Source of the DNA: a virus | Taxonomy: Duplodnaviria; Heunggongvirae; Uroviricota; Caudoviricetes | Virus record (IMG/VR): IMGVR_UViG_2519899835_000003 | Reading direction: 5' to 3' (one strand) | Length of the DNA: 64,000 nt | Shown: positions 41,203 to 50,580 of the stretch, one piece after another | How positions within the stretch are numbered: the first letter of the stretch is position 1 | Layout of the letters: the number at the start of each line of letters is the position of its first letter | Notes under the pieces: generated by a model | Seen by the model: only the letters and a program-made list of their open reading frames with translations | Database searches by the model: none | What the model was told of the DNA's origin: nothing | Position numbers and translations under genes: made by a program

Positions 41203-43113
41203 TTATGCGGCTGCTCCAGCTTTGTTTGCTTTAACTTCCACCGTATCAATAAGTACAGGGTAGGTTTCTGCACTACCTGTAATATCCGTAATGACAAACC
41301 TGTTGAGTCCATTAGCAGTATTGGCCCATTTCACCAGGTCAAACGCCTGTCCATCCACACCATCGAGCACCGGAGTAACATTAATGCTGTTACTGCCCTT
41401 AAATTTAAATGCAAGCGTATGCCAGTCATGGTCGAATGCGCCAAACGTGCCAAGTTCTTTTTGTTGATTAACTGTATGATGGTATGCAACATTAATACTG
41501 GCTTTATCTGTCTGGACAAAGAAAGAACTCAGATGGCCTTCACCACCCTCACCCGGCCATTCCGCTATTCGCCAGTACAAACCAAAGGCATACTTGTTTC
41601 TGGTTGTCTCAAGATTGACGTTTTCGGGGATTTTAAACCGGACAGCAATTTCCCCGCCTTTTTCCAGTAAAAGTTTTGCCTTGTCTGCAGCAATATCACA
41701 GTACATTGACCAGGATTTCGCGCTGTTATTTTTCTCAATTCGCAGAGCTTTATTGCCGCTGTCATCAACCAGTGTGCGTCTGCCATACATACCGTCCCAG
41801 CCATAAGGTTTCAGCTGATTGTCTGTAGCTTTTTTGGCATCGTAAAAAATTACAGACTCTGAGGTGGTAACCGGCCTGTCTGGAACAACCACCCCGGCAG
41901 TACCATTAACAAACGCAGAAGACTTACCCGCGCAGCTCAGAATCGCCGTTGCCAGACGGTCGGAAATAATCCCACGGCGAGCCCATGAACTGAAATGGCT
42001 CGCCCTGTCCTGTGACGTCCAGGTGGCTGAGCTGTCACGCCATTTCGAACCGTAATATCCGATACCCGGAATGTCCGGGTCTTCTTCCGGTTTGTTCGTC
42101 GGCACATTCACCCCGTTCTCATCCGTCATGAACGGTACGAAATGGATATTCTTTTCCGTTTTATTTTTATAGCTGCCGTACACCGTCTGGTACGTGGATT
42201 CGTTCTTCTGCTTCCAGAAATACGTCGTGTCCCCGCATATCCAGGGAACACCGCCAGCAGAGCCACCGACGCACTGGCCTGCCATATCCGCCAGGTCTGC
42301 ACGGAATTTATCAACCAGCGCACCAAACTGTGCGGCATGATTTGCCGGCGTACCGCCAAAATCAAATTCCCCCTGCATCCACACCACGGCAAACAGCACA
42401 TTTTTCGGGTTCTTCTCCAGTGCCGCTTTTGTTCGACCGATAAGGTCCTTATACAGCGGCTTGTCCACACCCCAGCGGGTTGAATTCTCCGAGGCACCAC
42501 TCGCGTCACTGTATGTGCCATCAGCTCCGGTGGTGAACGCTGAACCACCACGACAGCACGGAACCAGCAGAATGCCCGCATTCGCCGGTATAAACGGCAG
42601 CAGTTTTTTGGCGATATGCAGCCCCTGCCCCACGGTTCCGTACTGCCCCTTTGACAGGTCCGCTTTCGGATGGTTAAGACGGCTCATGTCCTGCACATCA
42701 TGCAGACAATGGTCCGCCGGAATGATGTCGTTATATTTGCATGCTGCACCGCCCGGTGTCACCGTACTGCGACGCGCTAACTGTTTAATACGTGGATCAG
42801 GGCTGTCGAATGTATCCGGTAATGGCAGTCCCTCACCGTATGACATACCATTGGACTGACCAGCAAGCGCGATCACATAGTAATATTCTGGCGCAACAGA
42901 AGGCGCTGAGGTCGTCGGACGGTTGCCTGGCTCCTCTGGTGATGAGATGCTCCCCTCACTCACAACTGGCTGGATGAACTCCGCACCATAACCAGCTGTC
43001 GAAATCAGCGCACTACCATAAGGCTGCCACCCTTCCTTCAGTTTTTGAGTTATTCGTTTCGCAAGGTCTGACGGCGACGCCGCCCTGACAACATCATAGT
43101 GTTTAAATGCCAT
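41203..43113 (-). CDS. Prophage NanS-like sialate O-acetylesterase (SGNH/DUF303)
   Basis: 636 aa with ALAGQSNGMSYGEG esterase motif; positioned between Q and the holin gene. Confidence 0.75.
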   Translation of the reverse strand: MAFKHYDVVRAASPSDLAKRITQKLKEGWQPYGSALISTAGYGAEFIQPVVSEGSISSPEEPGNRPTTSAPSVAPEYYYVIALAGQSNGMSYGEGLPLPDTFDSPDPRIKQLARRSTVTPGGAACKYNDIIPADHCLHDVQDMSRLNHPKADLSKGQYGTVGQGLHIAKKLLPFIPANAGILLVPCCRGGSAFTTGADGTYSDASGASENSTRWGVDKPLYKDLIGRTKAALEKNPKNVLFAVVWMQGEFDFGGTPANHAAQFGALVDKFRADLADMAGQCVGGSAGGVPWICGDTTYFWKQKNESTYQTVYGSYKNKTEKNIHFVPFMTDENGVNVPTNKPEEDPDIPGIGYYGSKWRDSSATWTSQDRASHFSSWARRGIISDRLATAILSCAGKSSAFVNGTAGVVVPDRPVTTSESVIFYDAKKATDNQLKPYGWDGMYGRRTLVDDSGNKALRIEKNNSAKSWSMYCDIAADKAKLLLEKGGEIAVRFKIPENVNLETTRNKYAFGLYWRIAEWPGEGGEGHLSSFFVQTDKASINVAYHHTVNQQKELGTFGAFDHDWHTLAFKFKGSNSINVTPVLDGVDGQAFDLVKWANTANGLNRFVITDITGSAETYPVLIDTVEVKANKAGAAA

Positions 43114-43597
43114 GAATCCTCCCGGCCGGGATAATATTGTGAGTAAAATAAGGAGCGGGCTGAAGTCCGGAAGTTACAGGACAATGGCAGAAGGGAGACT
43201 ACAGCCCGCAATTCGAAAAAGGTCGCGCAGTTGCGCAGAGTGATTACTATGGGGTATTATTCGCCAGCTGAAATATTACTTCACGTTTCATTGTTCATTC
43301 CTTGCCGCCCGCGTCTCCCAGCGCGGGCTTTTTTGTCCATAAGAAAGCCCCTCCGGAGAGGGGCTGGAGAGTGGCGCTATGTGCCATTGCATGGTGCCGG
43401 GTGCCTCCCGGTGAGTTCAGCCCGGTGCCACTAAACCCGCGTCATTCTCGTTTTGATAATCAGAGATTATACCGTCACCAGTCGCCCCTCCGCTCAGGGG
43501 GATTCACCATGCAGTTTTTTCTAACAAATTCTCATCCGGGCAGACAACATTCAACTGACTTAATTGTGAGGTATGTAACATTCCCGTTGAACGGATA

Positions 43598-43878: not shown

Positions 43879-44313
43879 TTACGATCGTAAACTATTTTTT
43901 CGCTGATAAAATACAGAGGTTCTCCCTCCCGGCAATTCACGCTCAACATACCGATCCATCTCAAGCCTCACTCCCAGCATCATCAGCATGCCTTCAACAA
44001 TCCCCTCCGCTTTGTGAAGGCGTTTACCTATACAGGTGTCAGAGCACCCATGTTTCCGTGCCAGCGCCATGAACGTCTCCCCCAACACGTAGTAATCAAC
44101 CAGCAAGTCATGCAGATCGCGATTGTTCCGGTAAAGGCGGGCTATGCACCCGCATATCACCATCGCATCATCGTCACAGCACTGTGGACGTGATTTTACT
44201 TTTTCGGGGATCAGTCCCTTAAATCCGGCAGCAATGGGCGACCATGTAACATCCTCATAGTTATTTACCGCCCATGCCCCCCAGCGCTCAAGAACCTGCC
44301 GGATATCACGCAT
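43879..44313 (-). CDS. Q: Late antiterminator Q
   Basis: [25 protein letters not shown]...[17 protein letters not shown] matches the Q of Stx phages as I recall it. Confidence 0.8.
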
Positions 44314-44503
44314 CAGTATCTTTACCCCATCCGCGATGAACCATAAGGACGCCATTGACGACGGCGTGCTTTTTCGCATCTTTATCATCAATGTATTTTC
44401 TGACTGTAGCACGATTGCAGTTCAGTATTCTGGCGACTTCTGTCTGATTTCCCCTGGTGCAGATCAGTAATTCAGGTATCGTTTGAATTTTAGCATTCAT
44501 CAA
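44306..44503 (-). CDS. ninH: NinH-like DNA-binding protein
   Basis: 65 aa; [19 protein letters not shown]...[17 protein letters not shown]. Confidence 0.7.
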
Positions 44504-44862: not shown

Positions 44863-45149
44863 GACTTAATCTTCCCCTCCTTCAGCAATATCGCCTGCGT
44901 CCTGATCACGCCTTCCAGGTGGTAAAGTCTGGCGTCGTTGTTGTCGAGAATTCGGGTGCGTCGGTCGATCTCCGCGTGGCAGTCACTACAAGCCCATGCA
45001 CCGATCAGGTCGTCAGGCTTCATTCCCGTTCCGCAAATTCCAGCCATCCGGTAATGTGCCAGAACTGTCGTTTCAGGATTGCCATTGCATACGCCGTAAA
45101 TCCGTACCTGGCATTCTCTGCCGCGCGCTTCTTTGCGTAGGTTAGCCAT
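44859..45149 (-). CDS. YbcO-like (DUF1364) nin-region protein
   Basis: 96 aa; RECQVRIYGVCNGNPETTVLAHYR...CSDCH cysteine cluster. Confidence 0.75.
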   Translation of the reverse strand: MANLRKEARGRECQVRIYGVCNGNPETTVLAHYRMAGICGTGMKPDDLIGAWACSDCHAEIDRRTRILDNNDARLYHLEGVIRTQAILLKEGKIKS

Positions 45150-45877
45150 TAAGCAGCCTCCCCTGTTACTTTCAGCATTCCGTTATCGAGCGGCTTTCTG
45201 GTCAGCCACTGTTGACCACGCCCGGTGATTTTTGTGGTGAACGAGATCTGTATTCCGTGATTTGTATTGACCGCTGTTTCTTTCACTGTGAAATAGCCGC
45301 GATCCATATATTCCTGCATTGGCACATTGCGCCGGGAACCTGAAGCAATAAGGATTTTGTGATCGCGCATCCACGCAAACAGTTTGTTTGGACCAATACC
45401 AACAACCTTTGCAAAGTTTCCAATCAAAATTCCGCTGGCCTCGCCAACTCGATCGGCAAACTCAACTTTAGGTGCTGCGAGAGCAAGCTGTTTCTCCAGT
45501 TCAGCCTTCTGGTCTTCAAGGTCGGCCGCAAGGCGCAATGCCTCAGAAAAGGTTTGTGGTATTTTCGCGGTTGCCCCTTCAAGCTCTCGCCAACGGTCAA
45601 CAAGACGAGCGGTGAATTCCGGCGACAATTGGGCGACGACAATAATGCTGTCTCGCTTACCTTGTTCGCCTTCGAAGACGTAAGCCTCGACACTACGGCG
45701 CAGTCCTAAGTTATTGATTTTTTCGAAAACCTGCAATGCAGGAAGTTGAATAACTCCAGATTCAGCCAGGCGCTCTATTGATATTTTTACGTTATCTGGA
45801 CGACTCCCCACCAACTCAGCGATTTCAATGCTGGTCATTTTGATGATGCTGCTATTTATCAGCTCATTCATTGTCAT
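45149..45877 (-). CDS. Rha-family regulator with KilA-C antirepressor domain
   Basis: N-terminus MTSIEIAELVGSRPDNVKISIERL; start may be 45838. Confidence 0.65.
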   Translation of the reverse strand: MTMNELINSSIIKMTSIEIAELVGSRPDNVKISIERLAESGVIQLPALQVFEKINNLGLRRSVEAYVFEGEQGKRDSIIVVAQLSPEFTARLVDRWRELEGATAKIPQTFSEALRLAADLEDQKAELEKQLALAAPKVEFADRVGEASGILIGNFAKVVGIGPNKLFAWMRDHKILIASGSRRNVPMQEYMDRGYFTVKETAVNTNHGIQISFTTKITGRGQQWLTRKPLDNGMLKVTGEAA

Positions 45878-45945
45878 GTCCTCTCATATTGAAAATTCAG
45901 CAATAAAAAACCCAGCCGAAGCTGGGTTTGTTAAGTTGTCAATTG

Positions 45946-46629
45946 TCAGTAGCGATGCAGTGAAGGCGGCAACTCTTTGTTCTTAAGCCTTTCCCATGCC
46001 AGAAGGTTCGTCGGCCCGTCAGGCTCATAAATATCTATATCCCGCGTGTGATTAATTAAAACGCCCCTCGCCCTCCCGATGATATACGAGAACTCATAGC
46101 CGTAGTCGTGGCATATGCCGGAATAGCCAGACTGAATCAGTTTTAATGCGGGATACAACTCACGGAACAATGCCTGTGAGCGGTTGGCATAATCCCACAG
46201 CCATACAAGGCTGTCTGTTTCTTTTGCGGAAAGCCCGTTGGGCTTCTTCTCTTGTTTGCCAGTATTTTTCTCGCACTGGCTGAAATAGCAGTCTTCCAGT
46301 TTTTCGAACACATCCCACGCCTGATCGGTTTCTAGCATTTTGGCGTGACGGGCTGCGCCTCGTTCTGTCCAGAGGATGAGGGAGCGAACGTTACGGGCAA
46401 TTTTCACAGAGTAGTTAAAAGCTACTCTGTGCTTGAACTCACGTAAAGTTTCACCTTCAAGTTTGAAGAAGTGTTTTTCCTCAATGAAACGACCTTTGTT
46501 TTCGTGGTGATTCTGGCGAATACGAATAGCTTCTGTGCCGTAAAGGTGCGCCAAAAGTTCGGTAGTGATAACGGGGATCTGCTTGTAAGTAATCGTGGAG
46601 AGTGTTTCAACAGAGATTTGAGTTGTCAT
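45946..46629 (-). CDS. ORF6N (Bro-N-like) domain antirepressor
   Basis: N-terminal ~110 aa shared with the 47548-48213 paralog ([20 protein letters not shown]...[20 protein letters not shown]). Confidence 0.7.
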
Positions 46630-46890
46630 AATGACGCCCTCGAGTGGTTTCTTAATAACTCACCACCGACGACGCCAATCGTCTGGTGGTGAACTGTGCA
46701 GGGTTGGCGTAACCGGGAAACCGACCGGCGCGGATCTCTCCGCCCCCACACAGCCCACCATAATTCAGATGTGCGCGTGCATACGACAATAAAAAACACG
46801 CTCGCGGCGTGTATCTGTCGCGGTCTCTATCCAGGACGCCAATCCCGACGCCAGATTTTGCTGGCGCGTGAGGAATATAGCCCCGAATAA
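46630..46890 (-). repeat. Copy 1 of a ~260-bp structured leader upstream of an ORF6N gene
   Basis: Aligns with 48214-48475; shared hairpins with compensatory base changes; hairpin plus T-run at 46789-46812. Confidence 0.6.
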
Positions 46891-47082
46891 ATCATCACGT
46901 CAATCACCTTGTTTTCCTCGCACGATGTCTTAGCCACCGGATATCCCACAGGTGAGCCGTGTAATTGAAGGCTTTAACGTCAGATTCTTTTGGGATTGGC
47001 CTGGGTTTATTTCTGGAACGTTTCGTTGGAAGGTAATTGCAGTTTTCACAGACTATATCGGTAATGCTTCGTCGCTGTCGTC

Positions 47083-47493: not shown

Positions 47494-47547
47494 TATTCCC
47501 TCTCACTGGATTTTCCCAACAAAAAAGGAGCCGAAGCTCCTTTAGTT

Positions 47548-48213
47548 TCAGAATTCAAATTGTCTTGCCCGCAGGCTTTTCAGCATTGGCATGGCCCGCT
47601 GGATAACGGAACTTGACATGTCGAGACGTGTTACCTCCCTCAGTAGCGCGTCTCTGTTCTTCGTCACCATGTAGATGGTCTCAAACGCAATGTCATACAG
47701 CTTGTTCGTGTATGAGGAGTTCAGCTCTTTCATAATGGGATACAGGTGTTTGCTGATGTCCTGGGCTTTTTCCATCCAGAGCTGCATGTAGCAAAGGAGG
47801 ATGATTTCTTCGGCTGTGAATTGTGGCTGAATCTGCGGCTGCTGTTCGGTTGGTGCTGTTTTTCCCTGGCTGAAATAGCAGTCTTCCAGTTTTTCGAATA
47901 CCTCCCACGCCCGATCGGTTTCGAGCATTTTTGCGTGACGGGCTGCGCCGCGTTCTGTCCAGAGGATGAGGGAGCGGGCATTTTTACCAACTAACCCGAT
48001 TGTTTCGGGTCTGTTCTTAAACTCGCGTAATTCGTTTTTTTCAATTTTAAAGTAATGCTTTCCGGGCATGAATCGCGTCGTGTTGTTCAGAAAGTTATCA
48101 GAAATGTTTTTGATTTTTGTTCCGTAAAGGTGAGCCAACAGTTCAGTAGTAATTACGGGGATCTGGTTATAGGTAACAGGGGAAAGGTTTTCGACAGAAA
48201 TTTGAACAGCCAT
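47548..48213 (-). CDS. ORF6N domain antirepressor paralog with the shared C-terminal domain
   Basis: N-terminus like 45946-46629; C-terminus like the 2929-3558 protein. Confidence 0.75.
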   Translation of the reverse strand: MAVQISVENLSPVTYNQIPVITTELLAHLYGTKIKNISDNFLNNTTRFMPGKHYFKIEKNELREFKNRPETIGLVGKNARSLILWTERGAARHAKMLETDRAWEVFEKLEDCYFSQGKTAPTEQQPQIQPQFTAEEIILLCYMQLWMEKAQDISKHLYPIMKELNSSYTNKLYDIAFETIYMVTKNRDALLREVTRLDMSSSVIQRAMPMLKSLRARQFEF

Positions 48214-48475
48214 AATGACCTCGCGTTTCGATAATTTTTACCTCGCCACCGTCAGGTGCTAATCATCGTGGTGGCGAACTGTGCGGGGTTAGCACTACCG
48301 GTCGAAACATCCGGCGAGCCTTTCGGCTCCCCCACACAGCCCGCCATAAATCGCGAATGTGACTGTGCTTAGCGCATAAAAAAACCGCCAGCGCGGTTAT
48401 GCACCGTTTCGATATCCGGGGTGCTAATCCCGACGCCAGGTTTTGCTGGCGCGTGAGGAATATAGCCCCGAACAC
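48214..48475 (-). repeat. Copy 2 of the structured leader upstream of an ORF6N gene
   Basis: Homologous to 46630-46890; hairpin plus T-run at 48378-48398. Confidence 0.6.
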
Positions 48476-48555
48476 GCGACGTTGTCAAACTGATGGCATT
48501 GCAGATCCCTACGCAATGTAACACTATGTGTTATACATTAATAACGGAACAAAAA

Positions 48556-48926
48556 ATGCGCATTTTTAAAAACGCCTGGTTTGAGCGATTTGCACGCAAA
48601 ACAAAATATCCGACCAATCACTGCGCGAAATTGTTAAACAGGCTGATAACGGGCTTATCTCAGCAAACCTGGGTAACGGCGTTATCAAGCAACGTCTGCC
48701 ACGAGTCGGTGGCGGCAAATCTGGCGGTTATCGCACAATCATTTTCTATCGCGTCGGCACAAGGGCCTTTTTCGTATATGCATACGCAAAAAATGAACGT
48801 GAAAATATAACCGCTACTGCGGAAAGTGCATTTCGGAAGGCGGCTCCTCACGTACTCAATCTAACAGATGAACAACTGGCACAACTGATTCTACAGGGTC
48901 AGTTTACGGAGGTACCCAATGAGTAA
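48556..48926 (+). pseudogene. HigB/Gp49-like RelE-superfamily toxin gene disrupted by a frameshift
   Basis: N-terminus MRIFKNAWFERFARK in one frame; toxin-like C-terminus GGGKSGGYRTIIFYRVGTRAFFVYAYAKNERENIT in another frame with no start codon; shift in an A-tract near 48600. Confidence 0.55.
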
Positions 48927-49236
48927 AAATTACCGCAGTGATGCGCTTGCATCCGTACATGAAATGATGGAATCGCTTCATGATATCGGCGCAGTAACGA
49001 AACAGACTATGCGAGAATTCGATGAAACTTGTCTCCAGCCAGCGCCGGTAATGTCTCCGGAAAGGATCCGTGCACTGCGCGAACGAGAGCATCTGTCTCA
49101 ACCTGTTTTTGCCAGATACCTCAACGTCAGTAAAAACCTGATATCAGACTGGGAACGTGGTGTAAAACGGCCGGGAGGTGCCGCTCTTCGCCTTCTTTCA
49201 GTCGTAGAGAAAAACGGAATCCAGGTAATATCATGA
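48919..49236 (+). CDS. HigA-like XRE-family HTH antitoxin
   Basis: 105 aa; LSQPVFARYLNVSKNLISDWERGVKRPGGAALRLL; start overlaps the toxin stop. Confidence 0.7.
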   Translation: MSKNYRSDALASVHEMMESLHDIGAVTKQTMREFDETCLQPAPVMSPERIRALREREHLSQPVFARYLNVSKNLISDWERGVKRPGGAALRLLSVVEKNGIQVIS

Positions 49237-49286
49237 TACTCCAATACAACAAAACCCGCCGAAGCGGGTTTTCATTAGAAGCACCT

Positions 49287-49781
49287 TTAGTTTTGCTGTT
49301 CTATTTTAAGCTTGATAGTTTCATACAAAACAATAGTTGCGCCTGTTTTACATAATTCCCGGCTGTCATACGCACGAGACCAATAACACAACCAGTTCTC
49401 GAGATCTTCTCGAGTATAGGTTTTGCAGGCCAGTCCCTCTGCCATTTCCACGATTTCATCGCCTGGTGCTGTTAACTCATAGCCATTCAACAACAAGAAG
49501 ACATAACCAGCCATCATAGCTGTTCGTTTGTTTGCATTAGCAAATGGATGATTCTGAATCAGACTTTCAATCAATACTGATGCCAGTACAAACATGTCAT
49601 TAGTCTGTTCATACCATCGAACCATGCTGGGACGAGACTGAGAAGAACTTAAATTATCAACACTCAGCACACTAACAGGTTCATCTGGTGTTTGAAGCTC
49701 AATTAAAAGGCGATTAATTTCGGTAAGATCATCAAACGAAAGGTAGTGCACTCCTTCAACAATCTCAGCCATAGAGCACAA
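49287..49781 (-). CDS. Fic/Doc-family toxin
   Basis: HPFANANKRTA motif; TTG at 49781, ATG at 49772. Confidence 0.8.
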   Translation of the reverse strand: MCSMAEIVEGVHYLSFDDLTEINRLLIELQTPDEPVSVLSVDNLSSSQSRPSMVRWYEQTNDMFVLASVLIESLIQNHPFANANKRTAMMAGYVFLLLNGYELTAPGDEIVEMAEGLACKTYTREDLENWLCYWSRAYDSRELCKTGATIVLYETIKLKIEQQN

Positions 49782-49790
49782 TACCCATCA

Positions 49791-49970
49791 TTACACTTTT
49801 GAAAGTTCTTCCATTGCCTTCTCGTAACGAGAAAAACCGAAATCGAAAGCATTTTTCACCTGCTCACGATGAGTGCAATTTTCATCGATAGCCGGGCGCG
49901 GAGCTGCCACAACGCTTTTATCGCGAGGGGGAATAGTCAATCGCGGGTGTTTTTTTAGTGCGTAGCTCAT
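49791..49970 (-). CDS. Putative cognate antitoxin of the Fic/Doc protein
   Basis: 59-aa ORF ending 6 bp before the toxin start. Confidence 0.45.
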   Translation of the reverse strand: MSYALKKHPRLTIPPRDKSVVAAPRPAIDENCTHREQVKNAFDFGFSRYEKAMEELSKV

Positions 49971-50179
49971 TGGGTGTACCCTTACTTCTCCGTCCTGTTC
50001 TTTAACAAAAATCAAGTCAATACAAAATTAGTCAGGCTAATGTTGTTAGCATAGCCTAATACCAATCGTATTCACAACCACAGTAAGTGAAAAAACCCGC
50101 CGAAGCGGGTTAAGTGCGGGTGCGTTGAGGATGCCTGACACATCAGAGGTGGCGAGGGATTTCTCCCTCGCCGGGTCTC

Positions 50180-50335
50180 TTACTCCTCAGGTTCGTAAGC
50201 TGTGAAGACAGCAACCTCCGTCTGACCGGTTCGGATTCGTACCTCGCATAGGTCTTTCCTCGTTACCAGTGCCGTCACTACGACGGTAATACAGATGACG
50301 ATCAGGGCGACTAACATCGCCTTTTGCTGCTTCAT
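50180..50335 (-). CDS. hok: Hok/Gef-family type I toxin
   Basis: MKQQKAMLVALIVICITVVVTALVTRKDLCEVRIRTGQTEVAVFTAYEPEE, near-identical to HokC/Gef as recalled. Confidence 0.9.
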   Translation of the reverse strand: MKQQKAMLVALIVICITVVVTALVTRKDLCEVRIRTGQTEVAVFTAYEPEE

Positions 50336-50580
50336 AGCCTGCTTCTCCTTGCCTTTCGGCGCGTAAGAGGCTAACCTACATGTGTCTAGCATGAAATTGG
50401 CCTCAGATTAATGTTAGGCGTCTTGCAGGACGCGTAATGTTAACTGGGGTTTTTCTCTGTCTGCCTTACGGTGGCATGCCCGAGGCAGACAGCCTCAAGC
50501 ACCCGCAGCAATTCTACTTAACTCTCGCTTTACCGCAAACCGTTTTTACCCGATATGGGAATTCCCATATCGTAATGAAT

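Follow-up and report, generated by a model that had tools for sequence, protein, structure and literature searches.

The analysed window is a stretch of 64,000 nucleotides (nt) of DNA of a tailed phage (Caudoviricetes; IMG/VR record IMGVR_UViG_2519899835_000003), and the part considered here is the nin region of an Escherichia coli lambdoid prophage. The minus-strand genes of this region encode an ORF6N protein, NinB, NinE, a protein annotated as "antirepressor Ant", a KilAC antirepressor, a DUF1364 protein, RusA, NinH and Q. Strains FORC_069, ML35 and others are 100% identical to the window. Two of the genes, both coding for proteins with an ORF6N domain, are preceded by similar leaders lying 1585 bp apart in the one prophage; these units are called cassette A and cassette B, and neither is annotated as RNA in the RefSeq record of the prophage. 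Judged by its family matches, the duplicated leader is a known phage device, namely a P1-type C4 antisense RNA combined with an IsrK-like upstream small RNA, present twice.

The first-pass annotation of this DNA had described about 260 bp before each ORF6N gene as homologous, which is borne out by global alignment. The segments 46630-46890 and 48214-48475, with the RNA on the minus strand, share 203 identical positions of 261/262, while 200 shuffles of copy B gave 153 on average and 165 at most. The homologous region of each copy begins at the -10 promoter element, reaches the start codon of the gene and carries on into the N-terminal halves of the two open reading frames (ORFs; 48% identity over 203 amino acids). 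In the 200 nt past each promoter 114 of 200 positions are identical, which is only the background level, and the leader homology therefore has a sharp edge at the promoter.

The whole window was scanned against Rfam 15 and the matches were judged by the curated gathering scores. Three families were found in each cassette: (i) isrK (RF01394, gathering score 50), with 75.5 bits in cassette A and 74.3 bits in cassette B, full-length over model positions 1-77; (ii) c4-a1b1 (RF03163), with 50.5 bits at 46828-46880 and 47.4 bits at 48413-48465; (iii) C4 antisense RNA (RF01695, gathering score 45), with 66.7 and 75.1 bits, full-length over model positions 1-87. In the same test the C4 references scored 68.8 bits (P1) and 69 bits (Gifsy-1), and both also match c4-a1b1 with scores similar to those of the window. 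The C4 segments fold at -44.5 kcal/mol (z -4.2) in cassette A and -49.1 kcal/mol (z -5.95) in cassette B, with none of 200 shuffles as good, and the minimum-free-energy fold equals the centroid fold in both. Consensus and terminator scans place the promoters 7 nt 5' of isrK model position 1 and T-run terminators at the end of the model. Every sequence-level test for the C4, c4-a1b1 and isrK families thus came out positive in both cassettes. In all instances encountered (window 46791-46880 and 48378-48465; Gifsy-1, L002, 34240-34329, among them), the isrK match shares about 40 nt with the c4-a1b1 match; the two families, of which c4-a1b1 belongs to clan CL00128 and isrK to no clan, are unlinked in Rfam 15 but describe one element.

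Each copy forms a closed cassette composed of a promoter, a short terminated RNA, C4, the sites a2 and b2, the antirepressor gene and a terminator. The predicted parts of cassette A are as follows.

46874-46903, minus strand: promoter TTGACG-18 nt-TATATT (consensus scan, 10 of 12 matches)
46791-46867, minus strand: IsrK-like RNA (Rfam isrK and terminator scan)
46867-46848, minus strand: hairpin 1 of the IsrK-like RNA
46842-46836, minus strand: site a1, UUGGCGU, in the loop of hairpin 2
46827-46821, minus strand: site b1, GAGACCG
46812-46791, minus strand: intrinsic terminator with T-run, the end of the IsrK-like RNA (terminator scan)
46682-46765, minus strand: C4 antisense RNA (Rfam C4, fold and stem covariation)
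46761-46743 paired with 46703-46685, minus strand: C4 closing stem
46742-46731, minus strand: C4 hairpin I
46729-46712, minus strand: C4 hairpin II, with b' CGGUUUC at 46723-46717
46710-46704, minus strand: a' ACGCCAA, single-stranded
46637-46678, minus strand: target region on the ant mRNA
46678-46672, minus strand: site a2, UUGGCGU
46667-46660, minus strand: GGUGGUGA strand of the a2 hairpin
46651-46646, minus strand: site b2, GAAACC
46641-46637, minus strand: Shine-Dalgarno sequence GAGGG
45946-46629, minus strand: antirepressor gene, 227 amino acids, ORF6N and P22_AR_C domains (RefSeq: "phage antirepressor Ant")
45908-45929, minus strand: closing terminator, a 9 bp stem with 5 G-C pairs followed by a T-run

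The corresponding parts of cassette B are the following.

48459-48488, minus strand: promoter TTGACA-18 nt-TATATT (consensus scan, 11 of 12 matches)
48378-48452, minus strand: IsrK-like RNA, start at about 48452 (Rfam isrK and terminator scan)
48427-48421, minus strand: site a1, UUAGCAC
48412-48406, minus strand: site b1, UCGAAAC
48398-48378, minus strand: intrinsic terminator with T-run
48267-48351, minus strand: C4 antisense RNA (Rfam C4 and fold)
48328-48317, minus strand: C4 hairpin I
48308-48302, minus strand: b' GUUUCGA, in the loop of hairpin II
48295-48289, minus strand: a' GUGCUAA
48219-48262, minus strand: target region
48262-48256, minus strand: site a2, UUAGCAC
48250-48243, minus strand: GGUGGCGA
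48231-48225, minus strand: site b2, UCGAAAC
48222-48219, minus strand: Shine-Dalgarno sequence GAGG
47548-48213, minus strand: antirepressor-like gene, 221 amino acids, ORF6N and P22_AR_C domains (RefSeq: "ORF6N domain-containing protein")
47524-47543, minus strand: closing terminator, an 8 bp stem followed by a T-run

The predicted start of cassette A at about 46867 coincides with isrK model position 1, about 7 nt after the promoter. Pfam domains were found in the proteins of cassette A (ORF6N, E=1.2e-19; P22_AR_C, E=3.6e-24) and cassette B (ORF6N, E=2.4e-20; P22_AR_C, E=3.4e-07), and this domain content, together with one RefSeq name, suggests that both regulated genes encode antirepressors. 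In cassette A the hexamer GGCGUC, located between Shine-Dalgarno sequence and start codon, was considered as a third a-type site and rejected for lack of covariation, since cassettes with other a-types retain the same spacer.

The recognition sites of the cassettes were assigned as in P1, where the loop of hairpin II is b' and the unpaired stretch on its 3' side is a'. The complementarity amounts to 7 nt at a and 6-7 nt at b in both cassettes. According to RNAduplex, the cognate a' and b' pair with the isrK region and with the region after C4 at fixed registers (-7.3 to -10.0 kcal/mol); a'-a2 and b'-b2 give -10.0 and -7.3 kcal/mol in the expected register in cassette A, and -8.7 and -8.4 kcal/mol in cassette B. 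Pairings between non-cognate sites of A and B are weaker or off-register.

A wider set of relatives was obtained by scanning viral contigs once for the conserved pattern of hairpin 1. The 120 loci found, together with the window and loci obtained before, make 124 cassettes, 70 of them distinct; 68 were parsed for site types, and the formal pair counts come from an alignment of 64 intact cassettes (63 distinct). Across the 70 related cassettes the -35 TTGAC and the -10 element are kept. The 68 parsed cassettes hold 8 types of a', 15 types of b' loop and 23 combinations of the two, so that the a and b sites reassort. For the comparison of cognate sites with non-cognate ones, 2924 pairings differing at both sites were used. 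The mean longest Watson-Crick run is 7.1 against 3.1 for a'-a1, 7.0 against 3.5 for a'-a2, 5.9 against 3.6 for b'-b1 and 6.9 against 4.7 for b'-b2. An uninterrupted run of 7 or more Watson-Crick pairs at a1 as well as at a2 is present in 97% of the cognate sets and in 0% of the non-cognate ones, and one of 6 or more pairs at b2 in 93% and 17%, respectively. The few exceptions to cognate pairing are cassettes whose downstream part has been replaced.

In the 63 distinct aligned sequences, the 17 pairs of the C4 closing stem are 100% paired, 6 of them covarying; the closing stem and both hairpins together comprise 27 pairs, 100% paired, 11 with changes on both sides. The pairing a1-a' is 100% and a'-a2 98.6% paired, each with 5 of 7 pairs covarying. 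The whole structure is 93% paired, compared with 34-44% after the 3' partners have been shifted by 1-3 columns, and the observed covariation score was reached by none of 500 shuffles. Hairpin 1 and the 5' strand of the hairpin 2 stem are uninformative in this respect because the search pattern fixed them; the terminator columns, which comprise three terminator types, are partly out of register in the MAFFT alignment.

Since cassettes A and B differ at both the a and the b sites, their C4 RNAs should not cross-regulate, and the site sequences suggest the same lack of cross-reaction as in P1/P7 heteroimmunity. For the latter, specificity is known to lie in short a/b sites that differ between relatives (PMC12197685). 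A further contig (L013) carries two cassettes, at 3959-4216 and 7221-7478, with the same a code (ACGCC) and different b codes. Cassettes that reside together can thus have one site in common, and partial cross-talk between them is conceivable. In one cassette (L122, 1606-1863) the b' loop (UUGGUUGAU) no longer fits b2 (GAAACC), and in three others (L010, L005, L087) unrelated DNA follows C4 instead of an antirepressor gene; by their sequences these four look like recombinants or remnants.

Three stems with compensatory changes between the copies had been named in the first-pass annotation, and all three exist. The stem gcgga/tccgc versus gagcc/ggctc is hairpin I of C4, in which 5 of 5 pairs are compensatory and 100% of the aligned cells are paired. 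The stem acacgc/gcgtgt versus aaccgc/gcggtt with its T-run is the intrinsic terminator of the IsrK-like RNA (46812-46791; 48398-48378). A terminator is thus present in both copies as proposed; it does not belong to the upstream gene, being located inside the leader after the first 55 nt. The third stem, caccacc/ggtggtg versus cgccacc/ggtggcg, is formed by the 3' strand of the C4 closing stem paired downstream, with a2 in the loop (46692-46685 with 46667-46660 in A; 48277-48270 with 48250-48243 in B). It is 99% paired in the 63 distinct relatives, with one position covarying, and it is mutually exclusive with the base of the C4 closing stem. One position of the 3' strand of C4 changes together with its partner in the closing stem as well as with the one in the alternative a2 hairpin (alignment columns 117, 187 and 220; window 46758, 46689 and 46663), a hint that selection acts on both of these mutually exclusive helices. 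The compensatory changes in the stems are real, although the most informative ones lie in a1/a'/a2 and b1/b'/b2 rather than in the stems. The covariation analysis across homologous prophages that had been suggested is the one given above. Along with the Rfam matches and the homology to P1 immI and Gifsy-1, it supports the proposed control of the antirepressors at the RNA level. The leader would indeed be a control element, yet not one acting in cis only, as it appears to encode also a trans-acting C4 and a short IsrK-like RNA.

The order and spacing of the parts are the same as in the P1 immI record (NC_005856): promoter, a1, b1, c4, a2, b2 and then the gene. P1 and the window also have in common the C4 fold, a hairpin with a T-run between b1 and C4, an a2 a few nt after the C4 3' end, and a C4 3' strand that can pair downstream around a2, in P1 with a different sequence (CCTGCCACC/GGTAGCAGG). 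The hairpin of P1 (L003, about 3283-3312; ACCGCA...TGCGGT with T-run) is terminator-like and takes the position of the IsrK terminator, and the isrK model scores below gathering on P1. There are also differences between the two systems. The P1 cassette belongs to a plasmid prophage, whereas those of the window form a tandem pair in the nin region of a lambdoid prophage; the window's antirepressors have ORF6N and P22_AR_C domains, while P1 Ant1/2 has the KilAC/ANT domain; and b2 abuts the Shine-Dalgarno sequence in the window and overlaps it in P1. Nor was a C1-type operator identified at the promoter, although no search was aimed at it. No icd-like ORF was found in either cassette, the antirepressor AUG following directly after the Shine-Dalgarno sequence as the first ORF after b2. 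The P1 route, consisting of translational repression of icd and Rho termination before ant, therefore cannot apply as such. By analogy, the cassettes of the window would work like a simplified P1 immI with the antirepressor directly behind b2. In P1, C4 is a trans-acting RNA released from a precursor, its 5' end being cut by RNase P. Judged by an alignment with P1, the mature C4 would extend from about 46759 to 46685 in cassette A and from about 48345 to 48270 in cassette B.

Two further RNA systems of phages may be compared. The CI RNA of the satellite phage P4, with its seqA, seqB and seqC, was named by the Gifsy-1 authors as a structural analogue of IsrK/STnc1160 (PMC4825925). Like the RNAs of the window, it is a small RNA derived from the leader of its own operon and pairs with repeated sites up- and downstream of itself; unlike them, it acts by premature transcription termination of replication genes, and no P4-family match was obtained in the Rfam scan of the window. 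The P22 Ant-type antirepressor is controlled at the RNA level by the sar RNA of immI, a true cis-antisense RNA transcribed from the strand opposite the ant ribosome-binding site. The proteins of the window share the P22_AR_C domain with the P22 system, whereas their regulator lies on the same strand as its target and upstream of it, and a consensus scan found no opposite-strand promoter in the leader.

The closest relative of cassette A is the isrK-orf45-anrP locus of Gifsy-1, which has the same a site (UUGGCGU/ACGCCAA), the same layout of promoter, IsrK, terminator and C4, and an isrK score of 79.3 bits. The full C4 match of Gifsy-1 (L002, 34131-34214) is the stretch described as orf45/STnc1160. 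The protein of cassette A is 67% identical to AnrP over residues 1-126, the ORF6N half (E=1e-55), and the protein of cassette B has the same ORF6N half; AnrP is without the P22_AR_C domain that the window's antirepressors possess. The b sites differ, being UCGGUGAU in Gifsy-1, UCGGUUUC in cassette A and AUGUUUCGA in cassette B. The location differs as well: the Gifsy-1 locus lies directly downstream of the Q-like antQ, whereas the cassettes of the window are found 1.5-4 kb upstream of Q, among ninB/ninE.

The Gifsy-1 read-through mRNA of isrK is translationally silent, IsrK supplied in trans raises the translation of anrP 139-fold, and STnc1160, of about 80 nt, is processed from the read-through transcript (PMC4825925). 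The published mutations can be placed on the parts described here when +1 is set at 34316 on L002, a numbering that fits A107 as the A of the orf45 AUG and the stated bases G28, G31 and C18. The derepressing mutations G28A and G31A then map to a1 (U26-U32), and C159U and C162U to a' (A158-A164); the "helix b-I" of Gifsy-1 is therefore the P1-type a1:a' pairing. Mutants in a' are derepressed 56-80-fold even when a1 is compensated, the double mutants giving 224-327 units against 4 for the wild type (PMC4825925). Such residual derepression is expected if a' has a second, uncompensated partner in a2.

The small ORF of the leader was followed in the relatives too. In cassette A the same-frame ORF comprises 33 codons and its stop codon is separated from the ant AUG by 30 nt; in cassette B the figures are 31 codons and 38 nt. 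By contrast, orf45 of Gifsy-1 has 45 codons and a stop that overlaps the anrP AUG, an overlap missing in both cassettes of the window. Across the 70 cassettes the length varies from 8 to 64 codons, with 45 codons in only 7; 3 cassettes have no AUG there, and in 6 the frame stays open to the end of the stretch examined. The idea that the leader encodes a conserved small protein like orf45 was rejected because of this variation in length and the missing stop/start overlap with ant. In the leader family it is, as these comparisons indicate, the RNA that is conserved and not the small ORF.

Taken together, each copy is probably an autonomous cassette of the P1/P7 immI type, with C4 and an IsrK-like RNA, that holds its antirepressor gene translationally silent. 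The processing of C4, the repression of translation, the activating sign of the a1/b1 short RNA and the antirepressor activity of the proteins are proposed here by analogy with P1 and Gifsy-1. The sigma-70 promoter would start the minus-strand transcript at about 46867 (A) or 48452 (B), and most transcripts would end at the intrinsic terminator, giving an IsrK-like RNA of about 77 nt that displays a1 and b1. Read-through would cover the C4 domain and the ant mRNA, from which a stable C4 RNA of about 75 nt might be released, as in P1 and for STnc1160. This RNA is predicted to be tRNA-like, with a 17 bp closing stem and two hairpins, and its single-stranded a' and its b' in the loop of hairpin II would pair with a2 and b2 on the mRNA of its own operon. 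As a2 lies just after C4 and b2 2-4 nt before the Shine-Dalgarno sequence, the pairing would block the entry of ribosomes on the antirepressor gene. The sites a1/b1, with the same sequence as a2/b2, would compete for a'/b', whether in cis as long as the leader is unprocessed or in trans on the short RNA; the state of the switch may therefore depend on how much RNA is terminated relative to how much is read through. The C4 RNAs of cassette A (a' ACGCCAA, b' CGGUUUC) and cassette B (a' GUGCUAA, b' GUUUCGA) would each regulate separately.

Several observations weigh against this interpretation. The c4-a1b1 scores barely exceed the gathering score of 46.7. The b-site columns were misaligned by MAFFT (64-74% paired), and the evidence for b comes from the register-free scan for the longest complement. 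Both cassettes are without icd, a feature of P1 immI. In neither of them does b2 overlap the Shine-Dalgarno sequence, as it does in P1 and many relatives (e.g. GAAAAAGGA, GUACGGAG and AUCACCGGAGGG); it ends 4 nt (A) or 2 nt (B) upstream, within the 30S footprint. The minimum-free-energy fold of both full-length leaders prefers the pairing of a1b1 with a'b' in cis, together with the third stem, over the C4 fold, and corresponds to "structure A" of the Gifsy-1 paper (PMC4825925). Finally, a1 mutations in cis raise basal translation in Gifsy-1 23-55-fold (PMC4825925), which speaks against a pure decoy role of a1/b1 and, by analogy, would better fit the published cis-structure model.

According to that model, the read-through RNA takes an inactive fold in which a1b1 is paired in cis with the a'b' region, and no free antisense RNA is needed; IsrK in trans opens the ribosome-binding site of an orf45 overlapping C4, and translation of orf45 is coupled to that of the antirepressor. 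Besides the full-leader folds and the derepressed cis a1 mutants just mentioned, the model draws on genetics, native gels and 30S footprinting in Gifsy-1 (PMC4825925), and the a1-a' pairing covaries perfectly. For the cassettes of the window it is nevertheless unlikely, since the small ORF is not conserved across the cassettes, and a closing stem of 17 bp with hairpin I, 100% paired and including 11 covarying pairs, is not needed in cis. Likewise a2 and b2, sites of which the cis model makes no use, covary with a' and b', and a1/a' double mutants of Gifsy-1 regain repression only 2-3-fold (PMC4825925). A plain cis attenuator, in which the terminator limits read-through and the other stems serve only mRNA stability, was implicit in the first-pass annotation. 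It would agree with the strong promoter followed by an intrinsic terminator in both copies, and the Gifsy-1 terminator is passed by only a subset of transcripts (PMC4825925). Such an attenuator is improbable, given that it explains neither the three-way covariation of short unpaired sites 130-190 nt apart nor the matches to a family of trans-acting antisense RNAs, and that the read-through mRNA of Gifsy-1 is made and yet untranslated (the transcriptional fusion gave 280 units, the translational one 4; PMC4825925). It might also be supposed that the copies stem from a recent duplication without selected RNA function, their similarity and compensatory look being due to shared ancestry and chance. 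The short distance between the copies and the homology of the adjoining halves of the ORFs are compatible with this. The idea hardly deserves belief, however: the homology ends at the promoter, the cassettes are mosaic across 70 variants with pairing far above that of the shifted controls, similar DNA occurs widely in E. coli and in several genera, and the covariation counts already contradict it. The C4 cassette of P1/P7 type is therefore retained as the preferred reading.

DNA similar to the cassettes is present in 480 phage records, among them those of Shiga toxin (Stx) phages (VT2-Sakai, for example). Of 5426 complete E. coli genomes, 2398 also contain such DNA, at a median of 2 places and at most 11 in any one genome. 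In 12 genome loci (Escherichia, Shigella, Enterobacter, Lelliottia, Leminorella) a C4 match follows every occurrence of the hairpin pattern. The finding is a correct rediscovery of a known and widespread riboregulator and no new kind of system, its novelty being low because the C4/IsrK family is already known. The IsrK paper contains no mention of P1 or c4 (PMC4825925), and a 2025 review lists IsrK and c4 in separate entries. No literature link between IsrK and c4, nor c4 in lambdoid phages, was found, a weak negative as most subscription journals lay outside the search. Somewhat beyond the papers found are the tandem arrangement of two differently coded cassettes, the many combinations in which a and b occur, and the identification of the IsrK locus with P1 c4; the placing of the Gifsy-1 mutations on the P1 a1/a' sites joins two lines of work that are separate in those papers. 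The absence of icd and of a coupled orf45 adds to what remains a modest interest.

It is tentatively proposed, with rather less than even confidence, that IsrK and C4 are one system in which the two short sites constitute a recombining combinatorial address code with at least 8 a-types and at least 15 b-types. If so, the code would let several antirepressor switches run insulated from each other or deliberately cross-wired, be it two switches in one prophage or those at up to 11 cassette-query places in one E. coli genome. Short IsrK-type RNAs would then be sponges for the cognate C4 RNAs of any co-resident prophage, and the published Gifsy-1 model would need to be re-read, with "helix b-I" as a1:a' and "orf45" as the C4 RNA. 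Prophages can be induced by antirepressors, and when a Stx phage is induced, toxin is produced. To know that each antirepressor has a C4/IsrK switch in front of it, with a two-site address that can be read, therefore helps to predict which co-resident prophages can silence or wake one another.

The surroundings of the cassettes contain further genes of note. A third antirepressor-type gene (45149-45877, minus strand; KilAC/ANT domain, P1 Ant family) lies directly after the terminator of cassette A and has no C4/IsrK leader of its own. Three modules of toxin-antitoxin type are crowded beside cassette B (48560-50504): a RelE/ParE protein with a helix-turn-helix protein (plus strand, to 49236), a Doc-family toxin (49287-49781, minus strand) with a small upstream ORF (49791-50015, minus strand), and hokD (50180-50392, minus strand) with an Rfam sok match at 50330-50504 (110 bits). 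A full-length Rfam STnc100 match (43335-43540, minus strand, 165 bits) is located just 3' of the Q antiterminator gene (43879-44412, minus strand) and 5' of a SASA/NanS-p-like esterase gene (41203-43113, minus strand). Its position is the one where Stx phages make StxS, and it resembles a short, terminated leader RNA transcribed from the late promoter.

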